Assembly (NCBI GenBank): GCA_022703585.1
Contig: JAKLDJ010000006.1
Location: 5,696-69,695 of the forward strand
DNA from: Candidatus Omnitrophota bacterium
Lineage (GTDB): Bacteria > Omnitrophota > Gorgyraeia > Zapsychrales > JAKLDJ01
Length of the DNA stretch: 64,000 nucleotides
Reading direction: 5' to 3'
Shown here one piece after another: positions 1-14,559 of this stretch (its first letter is position 1; each line of letters begins with the position of its first letter). The notes below the pieces were generated by a model that saw only the letters and a program-made list of their open reading frames with translations, did no database searches and was not told the origin of the DNA. The position numbers and the translations under genes are program-made.

Positions 1-291
1 AAAGATATTCTCGCTTTCGTCAAACCTGATACTTTCTTTCGTTGCCGGTCTTAGAGTAGCCTTGCTTGGGATGAGCACATTTTGGATAGCTCCACTTCTC
101 CCGGCCCAAGAGAAGTTGAATTTTTCAGAAGCGGTGTCGATATGTTCACCCAGAGCCAAGCGCATCTTATCGATGTTGACCTTGCCTTCGGATATCGCTT
201 CCGGAAGAATCGCCTTGAGCTTTCCAAGCAACTCTGCCTTGATATCTGTGGATTCCCTGACAGCCTTTTGGGTTTTATTTTTCTTTGCCAT
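1..291 (-). CDS. Adenine-specific DNA methyltransferase, N-terminal part (type III Mod / type IIG-like); gene continues off the left edge
   Basis: Hand translation of the minus strand from ATG at 291-289 gives MAKKNKTQKAVRESTDIKAELLGKLKAILPEAISEGKVNIDKMRLALGEHIDTASEKFNFSWAGRSGAIQNVLIPSKATLRPATKESIRFDESENIF. The FxFxWxG(K/R) ... PSKxTL(K/R)P ... SENxF run matches the conserved N-terminus of N6-adenine RM methylases (Mod / PglX-like). It is absent from the ORF track because it is truncated by the window edge. Confidence 0.55.
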   Translation of the reverse strand, partial: MAKKNKTQKAVRESTDIKAELLGKLKAILPEAISEGKVNIDKMRLALGEHIDTASEKFNFSWAGRSGAIQNVLIPSKATLRPATKESIRFDESENIF

Positions 292-322
292 GTTTAGCCT
301 CTTTTTATGTTATGCAAATTGG

Positions 323-664
323 TCATAATTTCTTTGCTAATTTCTTGTATGATGCGTGATTTAGTGCGCCCCCGCAAGACGTTTCTTGAGCCTTTGTTAT
401 TAAAATTGACATGCGTCTATTCATCTTTAAGCTCTTTGGAGTAATTTTAATGCTTTTTATTGGTTCTCTTTTGCCTCTCTTGTGGTCGTTGATTTTTCGG
501 AGCAACGCTTGAAGCTCATCTTTGGCATATAGCCGATAATTATTAAAGGGATGCCGGTATGATTTGAGTTTGCCAGAGGAATCCCATCTCCTGAGCGTCA
601 TTTCAGAGACCCCCAGAAGTTCAGAGGCTTCTTTGATTGTTATATAATCGTCTATTTTCTTCAT
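323..664 (-). CDS. MerR/excisionase(Xis)-family helix-turn-helix DNA-binding protein
   Basis: ORF 323-682. The true ATG is at 664 (MKKIDDYITIKEASELLGVSEMTLRRWDSSGKL...YRLYAKDELQALL); the first in-frame start is a TTG. It has an N-terminal MerR-type HTH followed by a basic tail, and lies directly upstream of the methylase gene on the same strand. Confidence 0.6.
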   Translation of the reverse strand: MKKIDDYITIKEASELLGVSEMTLRRWDSSGKLKSYRHPFNNYRLYAKDELQALLRKINDHKRGKREPIKSIKITPKSLKMNRRMSILITKAQETSCGGALNHASYKKLAKKL

Positions 665-973
665 GTATATAACCTTTAACAAGATTATACACAGAAAAAA
701 ATAGAAATCAACACGAAGCGTCCTATCGTCTGTTCGTTATATTAAAATATCTTCATCCAAAACCATGGCGTTATCAGAAATAAAATTTCGCCTGAATCAA
801 GTGACCAGTCCCTGACCTAAGGCAGGACAAGAGTCGTTTATCATATTTTATATAGTGCTTAGCTTAGCAAGTCTGCCTCTCTCGCAGACTCTTTCGCTTT
901 CTCTTTGCTTACTCTTTATTAAAACCTTTGCGTTAGAGAAGCGAACGCTTATTTTAAGGAAAGAATATATTTA

Positions 974-1020
974 GGCATAGCAGAAGCGTAGGGGATAGCC
1001 TCAGCTATGCCTAATATATA
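974..1020 (-). terminator. Hairpin just downstream of the 1023-1364 gene (possible intrinsic terminator)
   Basis: Inverted repeat ttaggcatagc...gctatgcctaa followed by an A/T-rich run on the minus strand. Confidence 0.35.
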
Positions 1021-1022
1021 GT

Positions 1023-1364
1023 CTATTCTTGGATAAGCCGAGTGAAGTATTTAGTTTGGTTGCCAACGCCGGTTTTCTTGATGCCGACCATTGAACCGAA
1101 CGGATAACGTGCCATTTGCTCGGCCAAAATTCGACTGCCCCTGTCCCAACTCTGCCGGACGCCATTCGATTCAAAGATATAGCGCAGGCATTCACTTTTC
1201 CCACCGTCAAAACGATTTGGGATTTTCTCGACACCAAGAAATTTAACAATTTTCTCGGTATCGTCTGGAAGGGTGAAGAACTTTGAGTTTTTATTTATAA
1301 AATCATCGAAAATATCGCTACCGACACTCATAAATCCTCCTTGCGTTTTCAAGACGTTTTTCAT
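1023..1364 (-). CDS. Hypothetical small protein (gene D of the four-gene small-protein operon)
   Basis: ORF of 113 aa. The ATG at 1364 overlaps the stop of the upstream SpoVG-like gene (ATGA), and an alternative ATG at 1331 is preceded by AAGGAGG. I recognise no family. Confidence 0.5.
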   Translation of the reverse strand: MKNVLKTQGGFMSVGSDIFDDFINKNSKFFTLPDDTEKIVKFLGVEKIPNRFDGGKSECLRYIFESNGVRQSWDRGSRILAEQMARYPFGSMVGIKKTGVGNQTKYFTRLIQE

Positions 1365-1684
1365 TCATCCAGATAAGGCACGTAGTAGGTGCTTTCTGGG
1401 CCTCTCTTTGAGCCTTTGGCGATTTTGTCGATTTTATCGACTACTGCATTTGTTAGGTCAAGGGCTGTCTCTTTGTCGATAGGACAGAATGACTCGACCA
1501 TCAGGCCATGTGGTAATCTGATGACCGGATAGACTAATCGAAAACCTGACCCGTCAAGGCGTGTGAACACGCCTACTCCCTGAACTTTGAACCTGCCATC
1601 GATTACAAAGCTCGTGACGCCTACACGCCCCTTTTCATTTGGGGCGAGAGGGAAGAACTTGACCTCTTTCACTTCCACTTTCAT
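1361..1684 (-). CDS. SpoVG-like nucleic-acid-binding protein
   Basis: ATG at 1684 is preceded by GGAGGTGA at a 6-nt spacing; the ORF-track start at 1690 is a TTG. MKVEVKEVKFFPLAPNEKGRVGVTSFVIDGRFKVQGVGVFTRLDGSGFRLVYP resembles the SpoVG fold pattern (V..V..V...G...A.A.V.LD..F.V..I.V...G.F...P). Confidence 0.45.
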   Translation of the reverse strand: MKVEVKEVKFFPLAPNEKGRVGVTSFVIDGRFKVQGVGVFTRLDGSGFRLVYPVIRLPHGLMVESFCPIDKETALDLTNAVVDKIDKIAKGSKRGPESTYYVPYLDE

Positions 1685-1838
1685 TCTCAATCACCTCCTC
1701 AAACTCATTCCATTTGCGTAATAACCCGAAAAAGCGGCGCAAGCCAGAGCAGATTTCCGCTATTTCTTGAGGACTTAGCGGTCTGCCGTAGGCTTGCGCC
1801 CATTCCTCCTTCAGGTTATTTTTAGAATTTTTAGCCAT
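1635..1838 (-). CDS. Hypothetical small protein (gene B), uncertain
   Basis: ATG at 1838 (MAKNSKNNLKEEWAQAYGRPLSPQEIAEICSGLRRFFGLLRKWNEFEE...). It overlaps the SpoVG-like start by about 50 nt and has a weak RBS, so it may be spurious. Confidence 0.25.
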   Translation of the reverse strand: MAKNSKNNLKEEWAQAYGRPLSPQEIAEICSGLRRFFGLLRKWNEFEEVIENESGSERGQVLPSRPK

Positions 1839-1900
1839 TAAGAAACGTCGTATTGGACACCTTTGGTCACCCTCGCAGAAATAAGATAACCTAATAAATT

Positions 1901-2188
1901 TCAATCGGTTAATTTCTGCGGGTCGGATTTGAGATACTTTTCATACTTTGCCACAAAGTTCTCCATTTCATCCGTGGTAAACTGTAAAACAATAAAGGCC
2001 ATAAAGAGTAGTGAGTGGCCTTTGAGTGCCCAATACGGACGGCTTTGAGGCAGAAAACGAAACACCATGTGAAGCGTTTCTTCAACAAGATTCTGGCGCT
2101 CGGCAGGTATTATGAAATTAACCTGTGCAGGATTCTCGCCAGCATTTTGGAGAAGTTCTGATTTGATTCTTCTGTATAGTTCGCTCAT
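1901..2188 (-). CDS. Hypothetical protein (gene A, first gene of the small-protein operon)
   Basis: ATG at 2188 is preceded by AAAGGAGGTG at a 7-nt spacing (MSELYRRIKSELLQNAGENPAQVNFIIPAERQNLVEETL...). I recognise no family. Confidence 0.5.
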   Translation of the reverse strand: MSELYRRIKSELLQNAGENPAQVNFIIPAERQNLVEETLHMVFRFLPQSRPYWALKGHSLLFMAFIVLQFTTDEMENFVAKYEKYLKSDPQKLTD

Positions 2189-2239
2189 ATTTTTCACCTC
2201 CTTTCTGGGGAAAAACCTGTTTATCATTACTGCAGGCAA

Positions 2240-2505
2240 TTCTTCCCTTGCACATATTTATAGCAAGAAGGTTATAAATCTATCACTTGACGCAAAATAG
2301 TTTTAATTGTCTGGAAATAAATAACTTATAAAGCATGAATTTTATGTTATTCAAAACTGATGTATAAGGTTTGTGAGGATTTTCTGGCCTAGAGGGGGTG
2401 ATAAGACCTTAAAACTGGCTTAGGAGGGTATTTTTATTGTTTATATAGCTTAAAAGCGTATAATATTAATTATTAAGTTGATTAAACTCTATCTATAACT
2501 ATGTC
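2240..2505. promoter_or_regulatory. AT-rich divergent promoter region between the minus-strand small-protein operon and the plus-strand nuclease/Schlafen module
   Basis: A 266-nt non-coding, very AT-rich stretch lying between divergently oriented gene starts (2188 minus, 2506 plus). Confidence 0.5.
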
Positions 2506-3324
2506 ATGAAAATGAAAAGTAAGATTTTAAGAAAACTTATCGACGTTGAAATTAGATTAGGTTTCCTTCACATCCCCGCCGCAGGAATCGATTTGTTCCC
2601 CGAGAAAAACACCAAAATAAACGCCCTTGTAGATGGGGAATCCCGTCAATTAACTTACAATGCCACACATAGAAGAATCTTTGGCCTTACAAAATGGTAT
2701 TCGGATTGTCATGTAAAGGTTGGCGATGAGATTGAAATCGAAAAAGCAGGCGAGGAATACAAGCTAATATTTAATGCCGGTAAACTCGCTGAAACGCCCT
2801 TAAAGGAAGCCGAGACCTTGATTGATATTTCCGGCTTATCATCTCAGGCAAAGGGCAATATCGTTGAGGAACGGGTCAAGGAGCTTATTCTTTTGCAGGG
2901 ACAAGGGCTTTTGAGCGTTTATAGGCCGGTGACGGATACTGAGGGCATCGATTTGATTGTGCTGAAAAGCGGGATGTTTCAGCCGTTATTCTTGCAGATA
3001 AAAGGGCGTTTTAATGTTCAGAAAACCGGATACTTTTTAATGGATATCAGCAAGAAGACATTTACGGTGCATCATTCATATTTTGTAGTAGGCGCTTACT
3101 TTAATCCTCGTGAAATGGAAATCGATGAGCATTTGTTATTTGTTCCGAGTGAAGAAGTCGTCAAAGCTCCCATCGTGAAGTCGAATGTGGGGGAACGATA
3201 CCGGATTGCGAATCATCTCAATATGGATTCCAAAGGCCGTTGGGCCCCGCATTTGATTAAGAAATCCGATTTGGCAAGTAAGTTGTTGGAAAAGTTTGAG
3301 GAAATAGGGAAATATATTAAATAG
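2506..3324 (+). CDS. Restriction-endonuclease-like protein: N-terminal B3/EcoRII-N-like DNA-binding domain fused to an Mrr-cat-like PD-(D/E)xK nuclease domain
   Basis: N-terminal half: IRLGFLHIPAAGIDLFPEKNTKINALVDGESRQLTYNATHRRIFGLTKWYSDCHVKVGDEIEIEK fits the B3-like pseudobarrel pattern (grLxIPk..a...fP.....i.l.D..G..w.f.y......r.vLt.GW..Fv....l..GD.v.F). C-terminal half: VTDTEGIDLIVLKSG...LFLQIKGRF resembles the Mrr_cat motif GIDxI...D...(Q/E)xK(R). Confidence 0.55.
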   Translation: MKMKSKILRKLIDVEIRLGFLHIPAAGIDLFPEKNTKINALVDGESRQLTYNATHRRIFGLTKWYSDCHVKVGDEIEIEKAGEEYKLIFNAGKLAETPLKEAETLIDISGLSSQAKGNIVEERVKELILLQGQGLLSVYRPVTDTEGIDLIVLKSGMFQPLFLQIKGRFNVQKTGYFLMDISKKTFTVHHSYFVVGAYFNPREMEIDEHLLFVPSEEVVKAPIVKSNVGERYRIANHLNMDSKGRWAPHLIKKSDLASKLLEKFEEIGKYIK

Positions 3325-3335
3325 GAAATTACTCA

Positions 3336-5057
3336 ATGATTGATTCAGTTGATTCGATATTAAAAGAAATAGAGAACACTTCTTTAGTTGAGCACCGGCA
3401 TCCGAATATTGAATTGAAATCCAGTTGGGATGTCGATTACGGAAGAAAAGTCTGTGGTCTTGCAAACAAAATCGGCTTCTCAAATGCTTGGCTTGTGATA
3501 GGCATGAAGGATGATGGAATTTTGGTAGGAAATAACGAGGCATGGGCTAAAAATTGTGAACAAGTAGTATCTCAACATGCCAACCAATTTCTGAATCCAA
3601 TTCAGGCGATTAAACAAATATCTTGTCATCAAATAAATCAATCTTGGATAGTCGTTATTCATGTTCAGCCGCCCGGTGCTGTTACATACTGGCAAGGCAT
3701 TCCTTACAAAGCTTCTGGCACAACTTTTGCCGCCATGATACCCGAAGAAATCATGCAGTTGACTGTATCTTTGCCCGGATTAGAAGATTTTTCCGCACAG
3801 GAATGGAAAGGGAGATGCGAAGCTTCTTTAGTCGCAGGTTTTGCAGAAACTGTCAGCACGAAACGCTCTGAGGCGCAATTTGTGGATTTATCGAAGAGAA
3901 CCGCCGATGATGTATTAACTCGTTTAGCAATTGTTGATAAAAATGTCGTTCGTATCTTGTTTGGAGATTTCAAATTTCGGATTGTTTATTACAATGATTC
4001 CAATGAGCCAGTTGAAAATTCTTCACAGCAAGGATTAATTCGCTTGCTGAGTAGCGAATTTATGCAATCAATTCAACGGTGGGGACTTAAAAATATTCAA
4101 ACAGAAAGTGGGGCGGAGATAACTTTAGAGTCTTACCCATCTAAAGCACTGCGGGAAGCTTTGGCCAACACGGTTGCGCATTGCGCTTATTTTGAAAGGC
4201 AAGGAGAGGTGGTTGTAGAAGTGTATCCCGCAAAGTTATCCATAAGTAATCTTTGTTTGCCTGAATCAGCGCATTTTGCTAATAAATGGTTTTCAAGAAG
4301 CAGAAATACCGTTAATCGTTTGTTGATGGAAACCTTGAGACTCGGCGGTTATGTTGATGAGTTAGGGAGAGGCAAGAATCTTATTTTCTGTGAAAGTATT
4401 AAGGCGGGATTAAAACCTCCCATTGTTGAAATTGAAAAAGCCGGACAATACAGCCGATGGAGATTGCAATTATTTGGAGCTTCCCGTGACCCAATCCAAT
4501 TAAAACTACTTCAACGGATTAAAGATTTATATAAGGACGAGTATAAAGCAATGGTTGCTTATGCTCTTGTTCTTTGGAGCAATTTACCTGTTTCAAGAAT
4601 TTCTCAATTTATCGATGGTGAATCAAGAGCATATTTTGAAGAAATTCTTCAAGATATTGATGGCCCGGTATTCTTTTATCAGAAAGAAGATAAACTTATC
4701 CTACATCGTTGGGTTAGGGTCTTGATGGAAGAAGGGAAGGATGCAAAGTCATTTACACTTGCGGAGGAAGAAGGGTTGAGGAATTTTGCTTATGAAATGT
4801 GCACAAAATATGAGCACGGATATATTACTCCTAAGGAATTGAGACGATTAGCGCATTTAGGCGAAAGCAACTCTGAGCAACAATTAAGCTCTGAATTGTT
4901 AAGTAAATGGCGGAAAGAAGGACATGTAGAATTTCTGAGGCGGGGGAAATACCGATTCAAAGAGCCGGTAAAACCACCGGAGGCTTGGTCAGCTCTCCTT
5001 GATAGGTTATTAAAAGATTCAACAAGTAGTGCATTAGGAAATACGGCCAATGAATAA
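3336..5057 (+). CDS. Schlafen-like AlbA_2 domain + HATPase_c_4 (RecG-C-terminal-like) + C-terminal winged-helix-like extension protein
   Basis: N-terminus: EHRHPNIELKSSWDV...VCGLANKIGFSNAWLVIGMKDDGILVG...VVIHVQPPGAVTYWQGIPYKASGTTFAAMIPEEIMQL matches the AlbA_2 (PF04326-type) pattern. Middle: ALREALANTVAHCAYFERQGEVVVEVYPAKLSISN...RNTVNRLLMETLRLGGYVDELGRGKNLIFCESIKAGLKPPIVE matches the HATPase_c_4 (PF13749-type) pattern. It starts 12 bp after the nuclease gene, so the two are probably one operon. Confidence 0.7.
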   Translation: MIDSVDSILKEIENTSLVEHRHPNIELKSSWDVDYGRKVCGLANKIGFSNAWLVIGMKDDGILVGNNEAWAKNCEQVVSQHANQFLNPIQAIKQISCHQINQSWIVVIHVQPPGAVTYWQGIPYKASGTTFAAMIPEEIMQLTVSLPGLEDFSAQEWKGRCEASLVAGFAETVSTKRSEAQFVDLSKRTADDVLTRLAIVDKNVVRILFGDFKFRIVYYNDSNEPVENSSQQGLIRLLSSEFMQSIQRWGLKNIQTESGAEITLESYPSKALREALANTVAHCAYFERQGEVVVEVYPAKLSISNLCLPESAHFANKWFSRSRNTVNRLLMETLRLGGYVDELGRGKNLIFCESIKAGLKPPIVEIEKAGQYSRWRLQLFGASRDPIQLKLLQRIKDLYKDEYKAMVAYALVLWSNLPVSRISQFIDGESRAYFEEILQDIDGPVFFYQKEDKLILHRWVRVLMEEGKDAKSFTLAEEEGLRNFAYEMCTKYEHGYITPKELRRLAHLGESNSEQQLSSELLSKWRKEGHVEFLRRGKYRFKEPVKPPEAWSALLDRLLKDSTSSALGNTANE

Positions 5058-5304
5058 GCAAGAAGCTGTTTACGCAATTGAACTGTTTTATGAAAAAGTC
5101 GATGAAGATTTAGCCTAAGTCCAAAGTAGGCCGAGGGTATCTTGAACGGCTTGACTCAAACCGTTCAAGGTGAGACGACTCGTCAGACCTTAAATTGAAA
5201 TTGCAAGCGACTCAACAAGCGAATCCGTAACATAGGCTTCTTCCGATACACAATAAGCCTTAAACTGCTCTAAGAAGTTCCTGAAATCGTCCGCTTGGGG
5301 GAGT

Positions 5305-5350
5305 ATTTAATAAAAAGGCCGCCTTGAAAGGCGGCCTTTTTATTAAATAG
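5305..5350. terminator. Bidirectional intrinsic terminator hairpin
   Basis: tatttaataaaaaGGCCGCCttgaaaGGCGGCCtttttattaaata: a GC stem flanked by an A-tract and a T-tract. Confidence 0.6.
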
Positions 5351-5460
5351 TTCCTCTGCGTTAAGAGGTACCCAGTACCCGAAGGGTGCGTTCGCCGGGA
5401 GCGAAGCGACCAGCACTTGTTACCCGGAGGGTAGAACAAGTGAGCCCTCGCGGGGGAGTT

Positions 5461-5506
5461 AATATTTAAAAGGGGCCACCCAAAGGGTGGCCCCTTTTAA
5501 ATATAA
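5461..5506. terminator. Bidirectional intrinsic terminator hairpin (end of repeat unit A)
   Basis: aaaaGGGGCCACCCaaaGGGTGGCCCCtttt. Confidence 0.55.
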
Positions 5507-5625
5507 TCCTTACGAGACGAAGAACCTGTCCGAAGGACGGGTTCGCTAGCGATCACGCCAAGGGCGGGGGAGCAGTCCCGAGGCGCAAAGCGACGAGGGA
5601 AGCCCTCGCGGGGGAGTCAAGTGAA

Positions 5626-5664
5626 ATAACAAGGGCCGCCTTTTAAGGCGGCCCTTGTTTGTAA
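5626..5664 (-). terminator. Intrinsic terminator downstream of the minus-strand 5684-6049 gene (end of repeat unit B)
   Basis: aacaaGGGCCGCCttttaaGGCGGCCCttgtt. Confidence 0.55.
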
Positions 5665-5683
5665 ATATCTATTGATAAACGGA

Positions 5684-6049
5684 CTACTTTTTCACTTTCT
5701 GTTCGTCACTCAAGAAGTGAGTCTGCACTCCTCTTTTAACGTATTCGGGCTGAATAACTGAGCCGTAGTTTTCGGGATTCGGAATCGGGCAGGTGACGAT
5801 GTCCCATACACCGGAAGCGCCGCGGGCTACTCCCCAAAACAGGCCTTTAAAAAGACCGACAACGATGCCGATACCGGCATTTTTGCTTTCCTTCCATTCG
5901 GTGTCGATATTCTGCGGTATTTCGAGTACAGCCGAAAGTACATTTGTTGCTCCGCGGGCCAATTTATCCTTCGGCTCACCGGCAGACGCGGATGTTACCA
6001 GACTGAAACACAACGCACCACACACCACCAACGCTACTAGAATCTTCAT
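5684..6049 (-). CDS. Small secreted protein, exosortase-system-associated TIGR04073-like family
   Basis: Signal peptide MKILVALVVCGALCFSLVTSASA, then KLARGATNVLSAVLEIPQNI...GIVVGLFKG...GVARGASGVWDIVTCP, which matches the R-G-x-N...E-I-P pattern I recall for that family. Confidence 0.45.
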   Translation of the reverse strand: MKILVALVVCGALCFSLVTSASAGEPKDKLARGATNVLSAVLEIPQNIDTEWKESKNAGIGIVVGLFKGLFWGVARGASGVWDIVTCPIPNPENYGSVIQPEYVKRGVQTHFLSDEQKVKK

Positions 6050-6204
6050 ATCTCCCTCCTTTTTAAAATAATTTAACAGAAATAAAAATTACCGTCAAGG
6101 AGTATTCTGTTATTTAAGCGAGAAGAGAATTTCTATTTTAAAGGCATCGTGTTATAATACATTCATGTTTTTGGTTAAGAAGAATAATTAAAAAGGAGAA
6201 CGAT

Positions 6205-6594
6205 ATGTCTAGAAAGATTGTTGCATTTGTCGGATTCGCTTTTCTGCTGCTTACTATTTACGGCTGTGTTGCGATTGTCGCCGGTGCGGTGGGGGGAGTA
6301 GGGACATCGGTGTGGCTTTCGGGCAAGTTGACCCAGGAATTTAATACTCCGTACGAGAAAACGATTAAGGCGGCCAGGTCGGCGCTGCAGTCGCTCAAAC
6401 TGAATATTACTAAAGAAACCAAGGACGATACGGTGGCCCAATTGCGCAGTGAGGATTCGAGCGGGAAGGACATCTGGGTCGATATCCGCAAGATTACCGA
6501 GACTTCGACCAGGGTGGAAGTCCGCGTGGGGGCAGTTAATTCGGACAAAGACGCGGCAACGACCATCCTTCAGAGAATCCAGAAGTATTTATAA
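6205..6594 (+). CDS. DUF3568-like lipoprotein
   Basis: AAAGGAGAA RBS. Signal peptide plus a lipobox (LLTIYGC). 129 aa with the overall DUF3568 pattern. A TATAAT -10 element sits at about 6154-6159. Confidence 0.55.
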   Translation: MSRKIVAFVGFAFLLLTIYGCVAIVAGAVGGVGTSVWLSGKLTQEFNTPYEKTIKAARSALQSLKLNITKETKDDTVAQLRSEDSSGKDIWVDIRKITETSTRVEVRVGAVNSDKDAATTILQRIQKYL

Positions 6595-6669
6595 GATAGC
6601 TCATATTGGTTTTTGCGGAAACGTGGTAAAGGTTTTTGTCCAGGCAAGCGTATAAACCGGAGATTAAAA

Positions 6670-6846
6670 ATGGTTGATATCGAGGCTTTGCGTTTGGCGT
6701 TATCGAAAGAGCAGGACGCCATAGAGATGTACCAAAAATTATTGCTGGAGCATCCTAATCTGGCGGATTTGATTAATTTCTTGATTACGGAAGAGCAGAA
6801 ACACAAGAAGCTGATAGAGAGAAAGATTACGGATTTAAGCCGATAG
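6670..6846 (+). CDS. Small ferritin-like / rubrerythrin-family protein
   Basis: ATG at 6670 (MVDIEALRLALSKEQDAIEMYQKLLLEHPNLADLINFLITEEQKHKKLIERKI): a short helical ferritin-like segment. A terminator follows at 6880-6918. Confidence 0.4.
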   Translation: MVDIEALRLALSKEQDAIEMYQKLLLEHPNLADLINFLITEEQKHKKLIERKITDLSR

Positions 6847-6879
6847 CAGGAAGCGAGCGAACGAAACGGTTCTGATTTG

Positions 6880-6918
6880 AAAAGGGGGCGCCCCGAAGGG
6901 GCGCCCCCTTTTTTCTCC
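6880..6918 (+). terminator. Intrinsic terminator
   Basis: GGGGGCGCCCCgaaGGGGCGCCCCCttttttct. Confidence 0.65.
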
Positions 6919-7032
6919 CCGCAGGGTTTTGAAGCGCATAATCTGCCGTAAAATACATTGCAAAAGATTTTTGATGAGATAGAATAAAAAAAACGCAACG
7001 GTTACCAAGTCTTCGTATCTAACCAAAGGAGC

Positions 7033-7368
7033 ATGTCCATGGCACAGGAGACCTTTATTGAGAAACAAGAGGAAAGTATCTCCATCCATATCTTTGCCGT
7101 ATCGGCTGCGCTGGTGGGGGTATGCCTGACCGTCATAGGTATTTTCAATATTGTTACGTCTCTTAAAAGAATGGAGACTTTTCTGGATGAGATGACTGCC
7201 GTCGATGCTGTTCTTTTTATGCTGGCCTGTATTTTTTCGTATATGGCGATTCGAACCAGGGAACGGCAGCCTAGGCTCCGTTTGGAAAAGATCGCAGACA
7301 GCGTGTTTTTGTCTGCGCTTTTTTTAATGGCTACAACCTGTGTGTTAATTGTTCTCCGATTGATCTAA
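7033..7368 (+). CDS. Hypothetical small membrane protein upstream of cstA
   Basis: 111 aa with 3-4 predicted hydrophobic helices. Ends 5 bp before the cstA start. Confidence 0.4.
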   Translation: MSMAQETFIEKQEESISIHIFAVSAALVGVCLTVIGIFNIVTSLKRMETFLDEMTAVDAVLFMLACIFSYMAIRTRERQPRLRLEKIADSVFLSALFLMATTCVLIVLRLI

Positions 7369-7372
7369 ACTC

Positions 7373-9169
7373 ATGCACGCCTTAACCCTGCTTACTGTCA
7401 GCTTGCTCGTATTTGCTCTAGCCTACCGGTTTTACGCGAAATTCATTATTACAAAAGTCCTTGTTTTTGACGACAAAAGACCGACGCCTGCCCATACCTT
7501 GCGCGACGGGCAGGATTATCACCCTACCAATAAATATGTTCTTTTTGGCCATCATTTTGCGGCAATTTCCGGGGCGGGGCCATTAGTCGGCCCGGTCCTG
7601 GCGGCGCAATTCGGATTTCTCCCCGGGTTTTTATGGATATTGATCGGCGCGGTCCTGGGAGGGGCGGTGCACGACATGGTGATTCTTTTTGCCTCGGTGA
7701 GGACTAAGGGGCTTTCATTAACCAGGCTGGCCCGAAAAAGTATTGGGCCGACGGCAGGGTTGGTGACAGGGATAGCCATCCTTTTTATCATTATTACGGC
7801 CTTGGCTGGGCTTGCCTTGGTCGTGGTCAATGCCCTTAATGAAAGTGCCTGGGCAACTTTTACCATCGTGATGACGATCCCGGCGGCTTTCTTGGTTGCC
7901 TTGTATATGTATAAACTACGCCCGGGAAAAATTATCGAGGCCTCGCTGCTGGGGATGGTTGTTGTTATGGCGGGGGTTGTATTCGGTGAGCCGTTATCAA
8001 GGTCGGGATTTGGGCAGTATTTCTTGCTTTCTAAACCCGCGCTTTCTGTTGCCTTGCCGGTGTACGGCTGTATTGCCTCAATCCTGCCGGTGTGGCTTTT
8101 GCTGTGCCCGCGCGATTATTTAAGTTCCTACATGAAAATCGGGACCATCGGTCTTTTAGCGGTTGGAATAGTCATTGTTAACCCTCAGCTTAAAATGCCG
8201 GCGGTGACAAGCTTCATACACGGCGGCGGGCCGATTATTCCGGGTAAGGTTTGGCCGTTTGTGTGCATAACCATTGCCTGCGGGGCGATTAGCGGCTTTC
8301 ACAGCTTGATCAGCTCGGGGACAACTCCCAAGATGATTAGCCGGGAATCGGAAATACGGATGATCGGTTTCGGGGCGATGCTTGTCGAGGCGGTTGTTTC
8401 TATCATGGCGTTGATTGCGGCTACCGTGCTTTTGCCGGGGGATTATTTTGCTATTAATGTGCCGGTGGAGGTATTTCATAAATTGGGATTAAGCACGGTG
8501 CATCTTGCGGAAATCGAAAAAATGACAGGCGAGGCCTTGGCCGGGCGCACCGGAGGCGCTGTTTCGTTGGCCGCGGGGATGTCGGTTATTTTATCGTCAA
8601 TCCCGGGAATGAAGCATCTCATGGGATATTGGTATCATTTTGCAATCATGTTTGAGGCGCTGTTTATTTTGACAACGGTGGATACCGGCACGCGGGTGGC
8701 CCGTTATATCCTTCAAGAACTTGCCAAGCTGGCAAGGCCCCGCTGGCAAGGGGCAAGCAGTTTGCCCGGGGTTATCACAACCAGCATTTTAATCAGTTTT
8801 CTCTGGGGATATTTAGTCTATAACGGAGATATTTCCACTATCTGGCCGATGTTTGGGGTGGCCAACCAGCTTTTGGCTACTCTGGCGCTATTAGTGGGGA
8901 CAATGTATATCCTCAAGCATTCCAAGCGATGGAGCTATGGATTGATCACATTTTTGCCGGCGTTATTTATGTTTGCAACAACCGTCGTTGCGGGAATATT
9001 AAATATTACGGGAAATTACTTACCCAAACACACCTTCCAGGGGAATCTCAATGCGGCCCTTTCGGGAATCATGATTATTCTCGTGGTTATCGTATTTCTT
9101 GAAACCTTAAAAAAGATGTATAGGCTGCGGATAACAGGCCTAGGCGTACCGAAAATAAAAGCAGCGTAA
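7373..9169 (+). CDS. cstA: Carbon starvation protein A (peptide transporter CstA family)
   Basis: FGHHFAAISGAGPLVGPVLAAQFGFLPGFLWILIGAVLGGAVHDMVILFASVR and the overall 598-aa polytopic membrane protein are typical of CstA. Confidence 0.9.
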   Translation: MHALTLLTVSLLVFALAYRFYAKFIITKVLVFDDKRPTPAHTLRDGQDYHPTNKYVLFGHHFAAISGAGPLVGPVLAAQFGFLPGFLWILIGAVLGGAVHDMVILFASVRTKGLSLTRLARKSIGPTAGLVTGIAILFIIITALAGLALVVVNALNESAWATFTIVMTIPAAFLVALYMYKLRPGKIIEASLLGMVVVMAGVVFGEPLSRSGFGQYFLLSKPALSVALPVYGCIASILPVWLLLCPRDYLSSYMKIGTIGLLAVGIVIVNPQLKMPAVTSFIHGGGPIIPGKVWPFVCITIACGAISGFHSLISSGTTPKMISRESEIRMIGFGAMLVEAVVSIMALIAATVLLPGDYFAINVPVEVFHKLGLSTVHLAEIEKMTGEALAGRTGGAVSLAAGMSVILSSIPGMKHLMGYWYHFAIMFEALFILTTVDTGTRVARYILQELAKLARPRWQGASSLPGVITTSILISFLWGYLVYNGDISTIWPMFGVANQLLATLALLVGTMYILKHSKRWSYGLITFLPALFMFATTVVAGILNITGNYLPKHTFQGNLNAALSGIMIILVVIVFLETLKKMYRLRITGLGVPKIKAA

Positions 9170-13043: not shown

Positions 13044-13088
13044 TGGCGGGCCAGCCGTCTTTAAAGACGGCTGGCCCGCTTTTAATTA
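13044..13088 (+). terminator. Intrinsic terminator
   Basis: GCGGGCCAGCCGTCTTTaaAGACGGCTGGCCCGCttttaatt. Confidence 0.65.
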
Positions 13089-13713: not shown

Positions 13714-13932
13714 CTATTTTAACGATTTTGTCAGCTGGTGGTATTTCTTCCAGTAGATGATATGATTGATGCCGTGCAGAATAAGTCCCAGGGCAAGAAA
13801 TATCCAGATCCAGATAGCGAGCGGCTCCAATTTTCCTGAAAGGACAAGGCCCAGACTTATGCCTAAGCACAGGAAGGTTGCCAGTTCAATAATGATGCAG
13901 GCCGAAAGGTCTTTTTTATTTATTGTATCCAT
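13714..13932 (-). CDS. Small membrane protein, hypothetical
   Basis: 72 aa with two hydrophobic helices. Confidence 0.4.
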   Translation of the reverse strand: MDTINKKDLSACIIIELATFLCLGISLGLVLSGKLEPLAIWIWIFLALGLILHGINHIIYWKKYHQLTKSLK

Positions 13933-13947
13933 TTTACAGAGCGATTA

Positions 13948-14559
13948 TTATGTTGCCTGTGATTTTGTGGCGGGAAAGTGGCGCTGTGTTATGGCCCGGA
14001 CTTCGTTTAGCCATTCCCTCCGCTGTTCGGCGGAGCTGATAATAACAACGCTGAATGTCCGCCGCACGAATTTTTCTACCCCGCAAAAATCAAAAATACA
14101 TTTTTTCCAGAGTGTTTCCAGGGGGTCGCCGAATGCCGTCATTTCCCGGTCTTCCGGAGTATTGGCGGTATTAAAAACGATCGCTGTCTTTGCTTTTAAT
14201 AATCCTTTCGGCACTCCTTCGCCGCTATCGGTTGTCGCAAATTCGTAAGCAACGCCCTGGCGCAAGACACGGTCTATCCAGCCTTTTAAGATAGCCGGTG
14301 GCTGGCCCCACCAGTTCGGGTGAATGATGATGATACCGTCGGCTTGGGTGATTTCGTCGCAATGTTTTTTAATCACATTTTCTAATTTTACGTTTTTAGC
14401 CAGTTCCTCGGGGGGCAAGAGAGGATTGAATCCTTCAGCGTAGAGATCGTGGCATGTGACCCCGTAACCGTTATCTCGTAAGGCCTGAGCGGCTGTTTCG
14501 GCAATGGCATGGTTAAAGCTTCCCTTTTGAGGCACTCCCAGAATGATAGAAATCTTCAC
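13948..14559 (-). CDS. NAD(P)H-dependent oxidoreductase, flavodoxin-like fold (NAD(P)H:quinone oxidoreductase / MdaB-like)
   Basis: MKISIILGVPQKGSFNHAIAE...IIIHPNWWGQPPAILKGWIDRV, typical of the Flavodoxin_2 family. Confidence 0.75.
   Translation of the reverse strand: MKISIILGVPQKGSFNHAIAETAAQALRDNGYGVTCHDLYAEGFNPLLPPEELAKNVKLENVIKKHCDEITQADGIIIIHPNWWGQPPAILKGWIDRVLRQGVAYEFATTDSGEGVPKGLLKAKTAIVFNTANTPEDREMTAFGDPLETLWKKCIFDFCGVEKFVRRTFSVVIISSAEQRREWLNEVRAITQRHFPATKSQAT

Follow-up and report, generated by a model that had tools for sequence, protein, structure and literature searches.

Candidatus Omnitrophota contig JAKLDJ010000006.1 raises a simple question: is the GC-poor block at its left a mobile element, and if so, where does that element begin and which enzyme brought it there? 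The stretch of DNA that was analysed, 64,000 nucleotides (nt) long (contig positions 5,696 to 69,695), is referred to here as the window, and positions are counted from its first letter. An earlier prediction made from the letters alone had placed a mobile or defence island at 1-5700. The accessory island is real, but what lies in the window is only the distal half of about 11.2 kb. Window 1-5459 is very likely the distal half of a mobile defence island integrated at a tRNA-Asn gene, with a large serine recombinase (LSR) as its integrase. Overall the island is of a known kind, a tRNA-integrated mobile defence island. What is unusual is the family of serine integrases at tRNA and tmRNA genes to which its integrase belongs, together with a left junction seen in two states, both situated for the most part beyond the window.

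Left end of the island

Look-ups with exact proteins retrieved public metagenome contigs (L001-L005) whose sequence agrees with the window at 100% identity for 15 kb or more. L001 and L003 are JGI 3300009776 (268 kb) and L004 is an ENA contig (412 kb); a window position equals the L001 position minus 6665. Outward from the left edge of the window, these contigs carry the rest of the methyltransferase gene mod, res, the LSR gene, tRNA-Asn(GTT), recR and dnaX. Their proteins agree with a host in Candidatus Omnitrophota, CstA being 86% identical to that of Omnitrophota metagenome-assembled genomes and the same RecR and LSR proteins being assigned to Omnitrophota at NCBI. Two features make up the junction:

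L001:904-977, convergent to the LSR gene: tRNA-Asn(GTT), outside the 64-kb window
L001:938-2443, minus strand: LSR, 501 amino acids (aa); Pfam PF00239 (6e-22), PF07508 (4e-13), PF13408 (2e-9)

The LSR reading frame stops at L001:938, 40 nt inside tRNA-Asn, and island sequence begins at L001:971-977, within the end of the same tRNA gene. The tRNA-Asn 3' end at which the island starts is 5.7 kb beyond the left edge of the window. A tRNA gene search of the 64-kb window returned none, the tRNA-Asn lying outside it, and the contig gene calls hold no tyrosine recombinase gene among the island genes. A Res subunit, integrase or other recombinase had been suspected just left of the window, and a type III Res and a recombinase are indeed there in the identical contigs, although the latter is of the large serine type and not a tyrosine integrase. 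The tRNA and attachment (att) site looked for on that side likewise turned up, as tRNA-Asn(GTT) at the left end of the island and 16-17-nt copies of its end at the right.

Right end of the island

The original prediction let the island end at a repeat and terminator array of about 400 nt. This boundary is correct, but the array is not a generic one and consists of copies of the tRNA end plus terminators, which were located by BLAST of the tRNA flank against the window, by repeat search and by alignment to the tRNA. It has three units:

5290-5354, plus strand: U1, degenerate tRNA end with the core GGGGGAG at 5297-5303 and a palindromic hairpin at 5299-5354 (27-bp arms)
5443-5504, plus strand: U2, GAGCCCTCGCGGGGGAG at 5443-5459, an exact match to the final 17 nt of tRNA-Asn; next to it, terminator hairpin at 5462-5504
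5601-5659, plus strand: U3, AGCCCTCGCGGGGGAG at 5601-5616, an exact match to the final 16 nt of tRNA-Asn; next to it, terminator hairpin at 5628-5659

The exact copies form a 16-20-nt direct repeat at 5443 and 5601, and an additional fragment, GCGGGGGAGCA, stands at 5562-5572. For a given 16-mer the chance expectation is about 3e-5 in 64 kb, both strands included, and both exact copies sit where composition and gene content change. All three units are paralogous over core, AT-rich stretch and GC-rich hairpin. Since each tRNA-end copy is followed by a terminator hairpin, the array is best read, as far as its sequence goes, as displaced tRNA 3' ends with their trailers and terminators, that is, as stacked attR-type scars. 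U2 is most likely the attR of the present island, and U3 probably represents the original tRNA end, displaced together with its native terminator. So delimited, the island covers about 11.2 kb, with its limits at the tRNA-Asn 3' end (window about -5700) and at 5459. We also considered the units as decayed tandem tRNA genes and rejected this, as no likeness to a tRNA body was found upstream of the 16-17-nt cores.

Composition agrees with these limits. All 5,057-nt flank windows, including the 10.8 kb recovered left of the window, have a mean GC content of 46.4% (sd 1.2, minimum 43.7), against 40.5% over window 1-5057, in line with the claim that this part is more AT-rich than the core genes that follow. 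The whole island (11,137 nt) has 42.1% against 46.1% for 11-kb flank windows (sd 0.6, minimum 44.8), and the GC of whole open reading frames (ORFs) separates the five long island ORFs from 47 others (p=0.0009). The deficit is genuine yet modest, and GC is back at background level at the TIGR04073 gene, the first chromosomal gene past the island.

A course of integration can be proposed from these features. The attP, with a copy of the last ~17 nt of the tRNA, would have lain at the very 3' terminus of the LSR gene, and the LSR would have recombined it with tRNA-Asn at the T-arm/acceptor end. At attL this would leave the tRNA intact, with the LSR frame running antisense over its last 40 nt; at attR it would leave the 17-nt repeat (5443-5459) and, behind it, the displaced trailer and terminator. 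Units 5290-5354 and 5601-5659 would then be scars of earlier occupants of the site.

The serine recombinase family

The LSR has the domain order Resolvase, Recombinase and Zn_ribbon_recom, and its N-terminal YFRVSSQEQ carries the RVSS serine motif. Its homologues run into thousands; the best 120 are nearly all 480-547 aa long and align only to residues 1 to ~491. At nine further fetched loci, which represent eight distinct islands and five target genes, the 3' end of the homologue gene overlaps or abuts a convergent tRNA or tmRNA gene:

L192: tRNA-Asn, within ~4.6 kb of recR-dnaX; Omnitrophota metagenome-assembled genome, LSR 64% identical
L168, L170, L171: tRNA-Gln (TTG), LSR homologue at the RNA gene
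L212, L213 (two assemblies of one island): tRNA-Gln (CTG), LSR 36% identical
L174: tRNA-Leu, LSR homologue at the RNA gene
L175, L177: tmRNA, LSR homologue at the RNA gene

Overlaps between LSR and RNA gene in the homologue loci measure 41-131 nt, and the C-terminal tails of the homologues (...LDSN..., ...REGSN...) are the antisense T-arm translated in a conserved frame. Such a family pattern at tRNA and tmRNA ends would otherwise be hard to explain and points to the LSR as the integrase. IMG/VR contigs with LSR homologues hold the tRNA-Gln end in one copy per contig, with no attR readable.

The most complete parallel is the ~12-14 kb island at L213:2094-16600 (ENA ERZ909578 k127_676736), found also in L212 and L214. 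From tRNA-Gln inward, it has the LSR, a type IIG restriction-modification (R-M) gene and an HTH_17/MerR gene, all directed towards the tRNA, and further on, in the opposite direction, an 85-aa ORF and a homologue (71% identical) of the 272-aa protein of our island. GC is 0.33-0.42 inside and 0.47-0.50 outside. Its far side bears tRNA-end direct repeats of 17 nt at 13721 and of 18 nt, with CCA and terminator, at 14551, each with a T-run or terminator, which indicates that this LSR family leaves long tRNA-end repeats and that doubled scars recur. A HigB/HigA-like pair lies between the two repeats.

With phage serine integrases of the Listeria A118/U153, phiC31 and Bxb1 type, the LSR shares the RVSS motif and the order of Resolvase, Recombinase and zinc ribbon, whereas identity to deposited phage integrases is at most 31% (about 25% to the U153/A118 type). 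Characterised serine integrases mostly use protein-coding or intergenic targets with short common cores. Unlike these, the present enzyme has a tRNA end as its target and a repeat of 16-18 nt. Use of tRNA or tmRNA genes by serine integrases was recorded for 14 of 297 islands, termed previously unreported and said to need experimental proof (Mageeney 2020, PMC7192596), and among tycheposons 27 of 937 elements have an LSR (bioRxiv 10.1101/2020.12.28.424599). What the island has in common with tRNA/tmRNA-integrated genomic islands (Williams 2002; Islander/TIGER) is the integrase gene beside an intact tRNA, the distal tRNA-3' repeat, tandem scars, deviant composition and defence cargo; it differs from the classic ones in that its integrase is a large serine recombinase.

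Two observations on the DNA around these integrase genes may be added. At L001:985-1030 (window about -5680 to -5635), a short way past the tRNA and within the coding sequence for the conserved PTYRRPFDLLAKG motif of the LSR, there is a conserved inverted repeat (AGAAGGCCCTT ... AAGGGCCTTCT) followed by TGTATGTGGGG; it is kept at the DNA level in four loci (L001, L192, L213 and L006) and could be an LSR P' half-site or a surrogate tRNA terminator. At L192:10157-12200, a few kb beyond dnaX-recR, a tyrosine integrase gene stands beside tRNA-Arg and tRNA-Ser, which looks like a second island hotspot near the same locus.

A second, attP-like left junction

One contig (L002, also listed as L005 and L193; ENA ERZ27257456 k141_34393) is identical to the others from the LSR rightwards and parts from them at L002:970/971 (window about -5695). 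Where the tRNA would stand, L002 reads ...TCGAGTCCAACGTGGGGAG followed by CATTTCG, and the LSR frame extends to 637 aa. A 625-aa relative (P0005, in L006) has a C-terminus homologous to the additional 146 aa, which hold a weak helix-turn-helix (HTH)-like stretch. Past this extension, a Sel1/LprI lipoprotein gene runs in the convergent direction, with 6 nt between its start codon and the end of the contig; the exact sequence of the lipoprotein was not present in the searched collection, and the best homologue (93%) belongs to a different defence island. The junction arm of L002 resembles a degenerate tRNA T-arm and acceptor, as expected of an attP. Joined to GGGGAG, CCA, trailer and hairpin, the same arm (94% nt identity) recurs in L194 at the end of a large defence island, a junction that by its sequence looks like an attR. 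The switch point between the two junction states lies within GGGGAG(CA). In three assemblies or more, the contigs that come from the recR side break off 55 or 123 nt beyond the junction, and NCBI lists the LSR as 'partial' at residue 491. The assembly graphs accordingly lead into the LSR sequence by two routes, but out of the tRNA by only one.

Three models would account for this pair of junctions: some cells may hold another, related element in tandem; the same LSR module may be present in another replicon or another host; or the LSR gene may be split on integration, its matching distal part having been lost here. Taking up the last of these, we tentatively consider that the LSR lineage might consist of dedicated tRNA/tmRNA-end integrases with the attP inside the integrase gene, which in some members would be split on integration. 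Only the attP state (L002, L006) would then have the intact 625-637-aa form, with its HTH-like domain at the C-terminus; the integrated element would make the 501-aa form, whose final residues are encoded antisense to the tRNA, and the 146-aa piece would be stranded at attR (L194). If true, the element would have a built-in switch that gives its integrase one form when free and another when integrated, and the finding of both tRNA-joined and attP-like junctions in several assemblies of a population that is otherwise clonal would mean that the element is currently active. Integrases with attP inside their own gene are known from the SSV1-type tyrosine integrases and from intP/intX of Myxococcus phage Mx8. 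There, too, crossover within the integrase frame alters or removes the C-terminus, as between the 501 aa at attL and the 637 aa of the attP-like junction here. SSV1 and Mx8 integrases are, however, tyrosine recombinases, while in our LSR the catalytic and DNA-binding domains stay intact and only the optional 146-aa HTH-like extension is affected. The two states may represent one switching system.

The defence island at L194:1-21224 (ENA ERZ27247099 k141_551888; also L195 and L196) contains an MvaI/BcnI-type R-M system, SIR2 with DUF87, ThsB-TIR, a 1,501-aa HSP70-trypsin protein, an HD protein, an LprI lipoprotein, a PBP transpeptidase, a second LSR with DUF2924, Eco57I-type and BsuBI/PstI-type R-M systems, and patatin with CD-NTase (CBASS). 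At L194:12035-12451, a stranded LSR C-terminal extension is joined to a tRNA-like ...GGGGAGCCA end plus trailer.

Alternative explanations

Several observations weigh against an island inserted at tRNA-Asn and bounded by the array. No genome with an empty site (attB) was found, the island being present in all 13-14 contigs with exact flanking proteins. Exact look-ups with the 573-aa protein, the HTH protein, TIGR04073 and RecR gave only contigs that bear the island or end one k-mer past the junction. GTDB relatives, in which CstA reaches 86% aa identity, are without synteny, with TIGR04073, DUF3568, ferritin and recR all missing beside cstA. In a metagenome scan with RecR, the best of the matches listed had 71% identity, the source contig not being among them; two distant relatives have tRNA-Asn ~2 kb downstream of recR. 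A megablast of window 1-5700 against plasmids gave no match. We thus infer the insertion from att structure and composition, and not from a presence/absence comparison. Of the differences in GC and codon usage that had been anticipated, that in GC is clear both along the contig and for whole ORFs, but the contrast in GC at third codon positions (GC3) between the five long island ORFs and the 47 others is marginal (p=0.06). Finally, the sole attP-like junction, that of L002, has a P arm reading AGTCCAACGT instead of AGCCCTCGCG, and this arm leads into the 146-aa extension and the lipoprotein gene. The L002 left flank, the extension and the lipoprotein gene were all sought in the window and not found, so either the island did not arise from an attP of the L002 type or its distal part has been lost.

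The last point is the strength of the alternative that survives best, namely that the island is an immobile, partly deleted remnant whose own attR is gone, the array units being scars of other, earlier elements. By the model of L002 and L194, the lost attR should carry the lipoprotein gene and the 146-aa C-terminal piece of the LSR, and it is indeed the P arm common to these attP-like and attR-like junctions that the window lacks; presence of the island at 100% identity in every conspecific contig would also suit an immobile remnant. We nevertheless consider it unlikely: all island ORFs are intact, the far side of L213 has 17-18-nt tRNA-end repeats from the same LSR family, and most members of that family have ~500 aa without the extension, which would make a short non-coding P arm normal for the family.

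Quite improbable, in our view, is that the array is a set of bidirectional terminators or a structured RNA insulating the convergent 573-aa and TIGR04073 genes, with a coincidental likeness to the tRNA. It is true that 5290-5660 has three perfect or near-perfect palindromic hairpins (5299-5354, 5462-5504 and 5628-5659, with arms of 27, 20 and 15 nt) with flanking A/T runs, that its RNA fold has a z-score of -11 against shuffles, and that Rfam, searched over window 1-9000 (E<=1), gives weak matches to terminator-containing sRNA and leader models. These matches are all below threshold and due to terminator hairpins and palindromes, no family reaching its gathering score. A terminator role would leave the two exact 16-17-nt matches to the tRNA abutting the island unexplained, at an expectation of ~3e-5 per copy, whereas terminators are expected anyway as displaced native trailers of the tRNA, and island L213 pairs tRNA end with terminator likewise.

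Still less credit is due to a tyrosine integrase, since lost, that integrated the block at tRNA-Asn, with the LSR as mere cargo or as a resolvase/invertase. Genes for tRNA are the classic targets of tyrosine integrases, and direct repeats of 16-17 nt are typical of tyrosine systems, so that target and repeat length would both fit; serine integrases, besides, are seldom found at tRNA genes (14/297, PMC7192596). Against this, the island is without a tyrosine recombinase gene, the LSR frame ends inside the tRNA, and its homologues behave alike on five tRNA/tmRNA genes. That the region is native chromosome with a lower GC merely from its gene content is scarcely credible, for although a GC deficit of only 4-6 points, the marginal GC3 contrast and the missing empty site would suit it, the att repeats, the integrase on the tRNA, the defence genes and the recurrence of parts of the block in unrelated contexts of other organisms all speak against it.

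Gene content of the island

The serine-recombinase island is thus left as the preferred reading. From the tRNA, its gene order is LSR, res, mod, HTH gene, hairpin, sm113, sm109, sm89 and sm112, all genes directed towards the tRNA, then a divergent intergenic region, the rightward genes for the 272-aa nuclease and the 573-aa protein, the array and the chromosome. The remaining features are:

L001:2440-5070, minus strand: Res, 876 aa; PADLOC REase_III 2e-231; Pfam ResIII, DEAD, RE_endonuc
1-291, minus strand: Mod N-terminus, first 97 codons; PADLOC MTase_III 2e-19
323-664, minus strand: HTH protein, 113 aa; Pfam MerR 3e-11, HTH_17 6e-10; TIGR01764 1.4e-8; PADLOC mad1 2.8e-14
665-1022, no strand: intergenic region; sigma-70-like promoter match from 711 to 684 (minus strand) for HTH-Mod-Res-LSR, a consensus match only
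1023-1364, minus strand: sm113, OB-fold protein, 113 aa; 56% aa identity to the L192 homologue
1361-1684, minus strand: sm109, 107 aa; 37% aa identity to L192:223-543; Pfam SpoVG E=0.005 (below cut-off)
1635-1904, minus strand: sm89, 89 aa, overlaps sm109; 35% aa identity over 63 residues to L192:78-263
1901-2239, minus strand: sm112, first ORF of the operon, called as 95-108 aa; from ORF list and gene calls
2506-3324, plus strand: 272-aa nuclease; N-terminal B3 pseudobarrel and C-terminal PD-(D/E)xK domain, by fold
3336-5057, plus strand: 573-aa protein; Pfam AlbA_2 8e-6 (above cut-off), HATPase_c_4 4e-4 and AbiEi_4 7e-4 (both below cut-off)
5684-6049, minus strand: TIGR04073 exosortase-associated gene; NCBIfam TIGR04073 4.8e-21

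The gene content had been called mobile or defensive from a methylase, an HTH protein, small ORFs and a nuclease, and these gene calls hold. What was seen as the N-terminus of an R-M-type adenine methylase running off the window is the start of a 629-aa Mod (PADLOC MTase_III 6e-174), whose gene runs 1,598 nt beyond the left edge and which has DPPY at residue 123 before FAGSG at 421, that is, motif IV before motif I. Res has DEPQ at residue 209, and the gene pairs Mod/Res and Res/LSR overlap by ATGA. HTH, Mod and Res are therefore predicted to form a complete type III R-M cassette. Systems of the EcoP15I/EcoP1I type share DPPY before FxGxG in Mod, the order mod then res with overlapping stop and start, and a Res that combines an SF2 helicase with a C-terminal endonuclease domain; the present system differs in the MerR/HTH_17 gene before it and the translationally coupled integrase gene after it.

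The HTH protein, whose gene lies 31 nt upstream of Mod, is of the excisionase-family domain type that had been assigned to it (TIGR01764/HTH_17), but it travels with R-M genes and not with the integrase. L192, whose LSR is the closest and which shares the small ORFs while being devoid of R-M genes, gave no homologue, and an HTH_17/MerR gene stands directly upstream of the R-M gene in L212 and L214 too. As it accompanies R-M genes rather than the LSR, it is probably the regulator of the cassette and not an excisionase. Its match to mad1, and its place before a methyltransferase gene, recall the MADS system; its neighbours here, however, are standard type III Mod and Res, and within the mad1-mad8 set of PADLOC no other island protein matches any profile.

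The four small ORFs, described at first as unrecognisable, are present, but the part of the operon that L192 covers turned out to be conserved there. In L192, where HTH, Mod and Res are absent, homologues of sm89, sm109 and sm113 immediately precede the LSR and keep their order. By this comparison, the small-ORF operon would be the conserved backbone of the LSR element and not cargo, with the R-M cassette inserted between backbone ORFs and LSR and coupled translationally to the latter through the ATGA overlaps. Family searches with sm112 gave no match, L192 stopping before the corresponding position; sm109 had nothing significant among PDB sequences, and sm89 is called by only some gene callers, with calls that vary between contigs. 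A long near-perfect hairpin at 951-1035 (minimum free energy -35.8 kcal/mol, z=-4.8), which directly follows the sm113 stop and precedes the HTH promoter region, may be a terminator or insulator at the seam between backbone operon and R-M cassette. Matches to mir-31 on both of its strands are spurious and reflect the palindrome, and a promoter/terminator scan gave no enrichment over shuffles.

Both rightward genes would be further, added cargo that targets nucleic acids. The 272-aa protein had been noted as a restriction-like nuclease, and its fold agrees, with a B3 pseudobarrel and a PD-(D/E)xK core that has the conserved acidic and lysine residues, although family-profile and PDB sequence searches gave no significant match. 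It has no sequence-level relation to the B3 restriction endonucleases EcoRII, UbaLAI, BfiI and NgoAVII, and its catalytic domain resembles those of I-Ssp6803I, NhoI and Hjc. By its fold, the protein may be a restriction enzyme. No methyltransferase gene was found beside it here or beside its homologues in L202, L203 and L213, for which reason the nuclease may be modification-dependent. The 573-aa protein combines AlbA_2 (Schlafen-like) and HATPase_c_4 with a C-terminal winged-HTH-like region and matches PHROG 12156 (7.5e-17); it has no relative among PDB sequences. A fixed module of the two genes was considered and dropped, since homologues of the 272-aa gene occur without a neighbour of the 573-aa type (L202, L203 and L213). 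At L006:5506-9181, the gene of the 625-aa LSR relative is followed by those of a DUF4062 + HATPase_c_4 protein and a KAP NTPase, so that HATPase_c_4 proteins recur beside this LSR family. Farther into the window, a BLAST self-match revealed a perfect 34-nt palindrome at 13046-13079, between a 132-aa and a 96-aa ORF.

Significance

Here, we have described a cleanly delimited island in Candidatus Omnitrophota, a poorly known phylum without cultured representatives, which offers a predicted complete type III R-M system and an unannotated family of putative B3/PD-(D/E)xK nucleases. Serine integrases are scarcely documented at tRNA genes, and the LSR described here belongs to a coherent family on the ends of tRNA-Asn, tRNA-Gln, tRNA-Leu and tmRNA genes. 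If confirmed, this would widen the target range of the enzyme class most used in genome engineering and would provide natural pairs of integrase and att site aimed at universally conserved sites. It may also turn out that serine integrases have their own version of the SSV1/Mx8 arrangement, with attP located within int.

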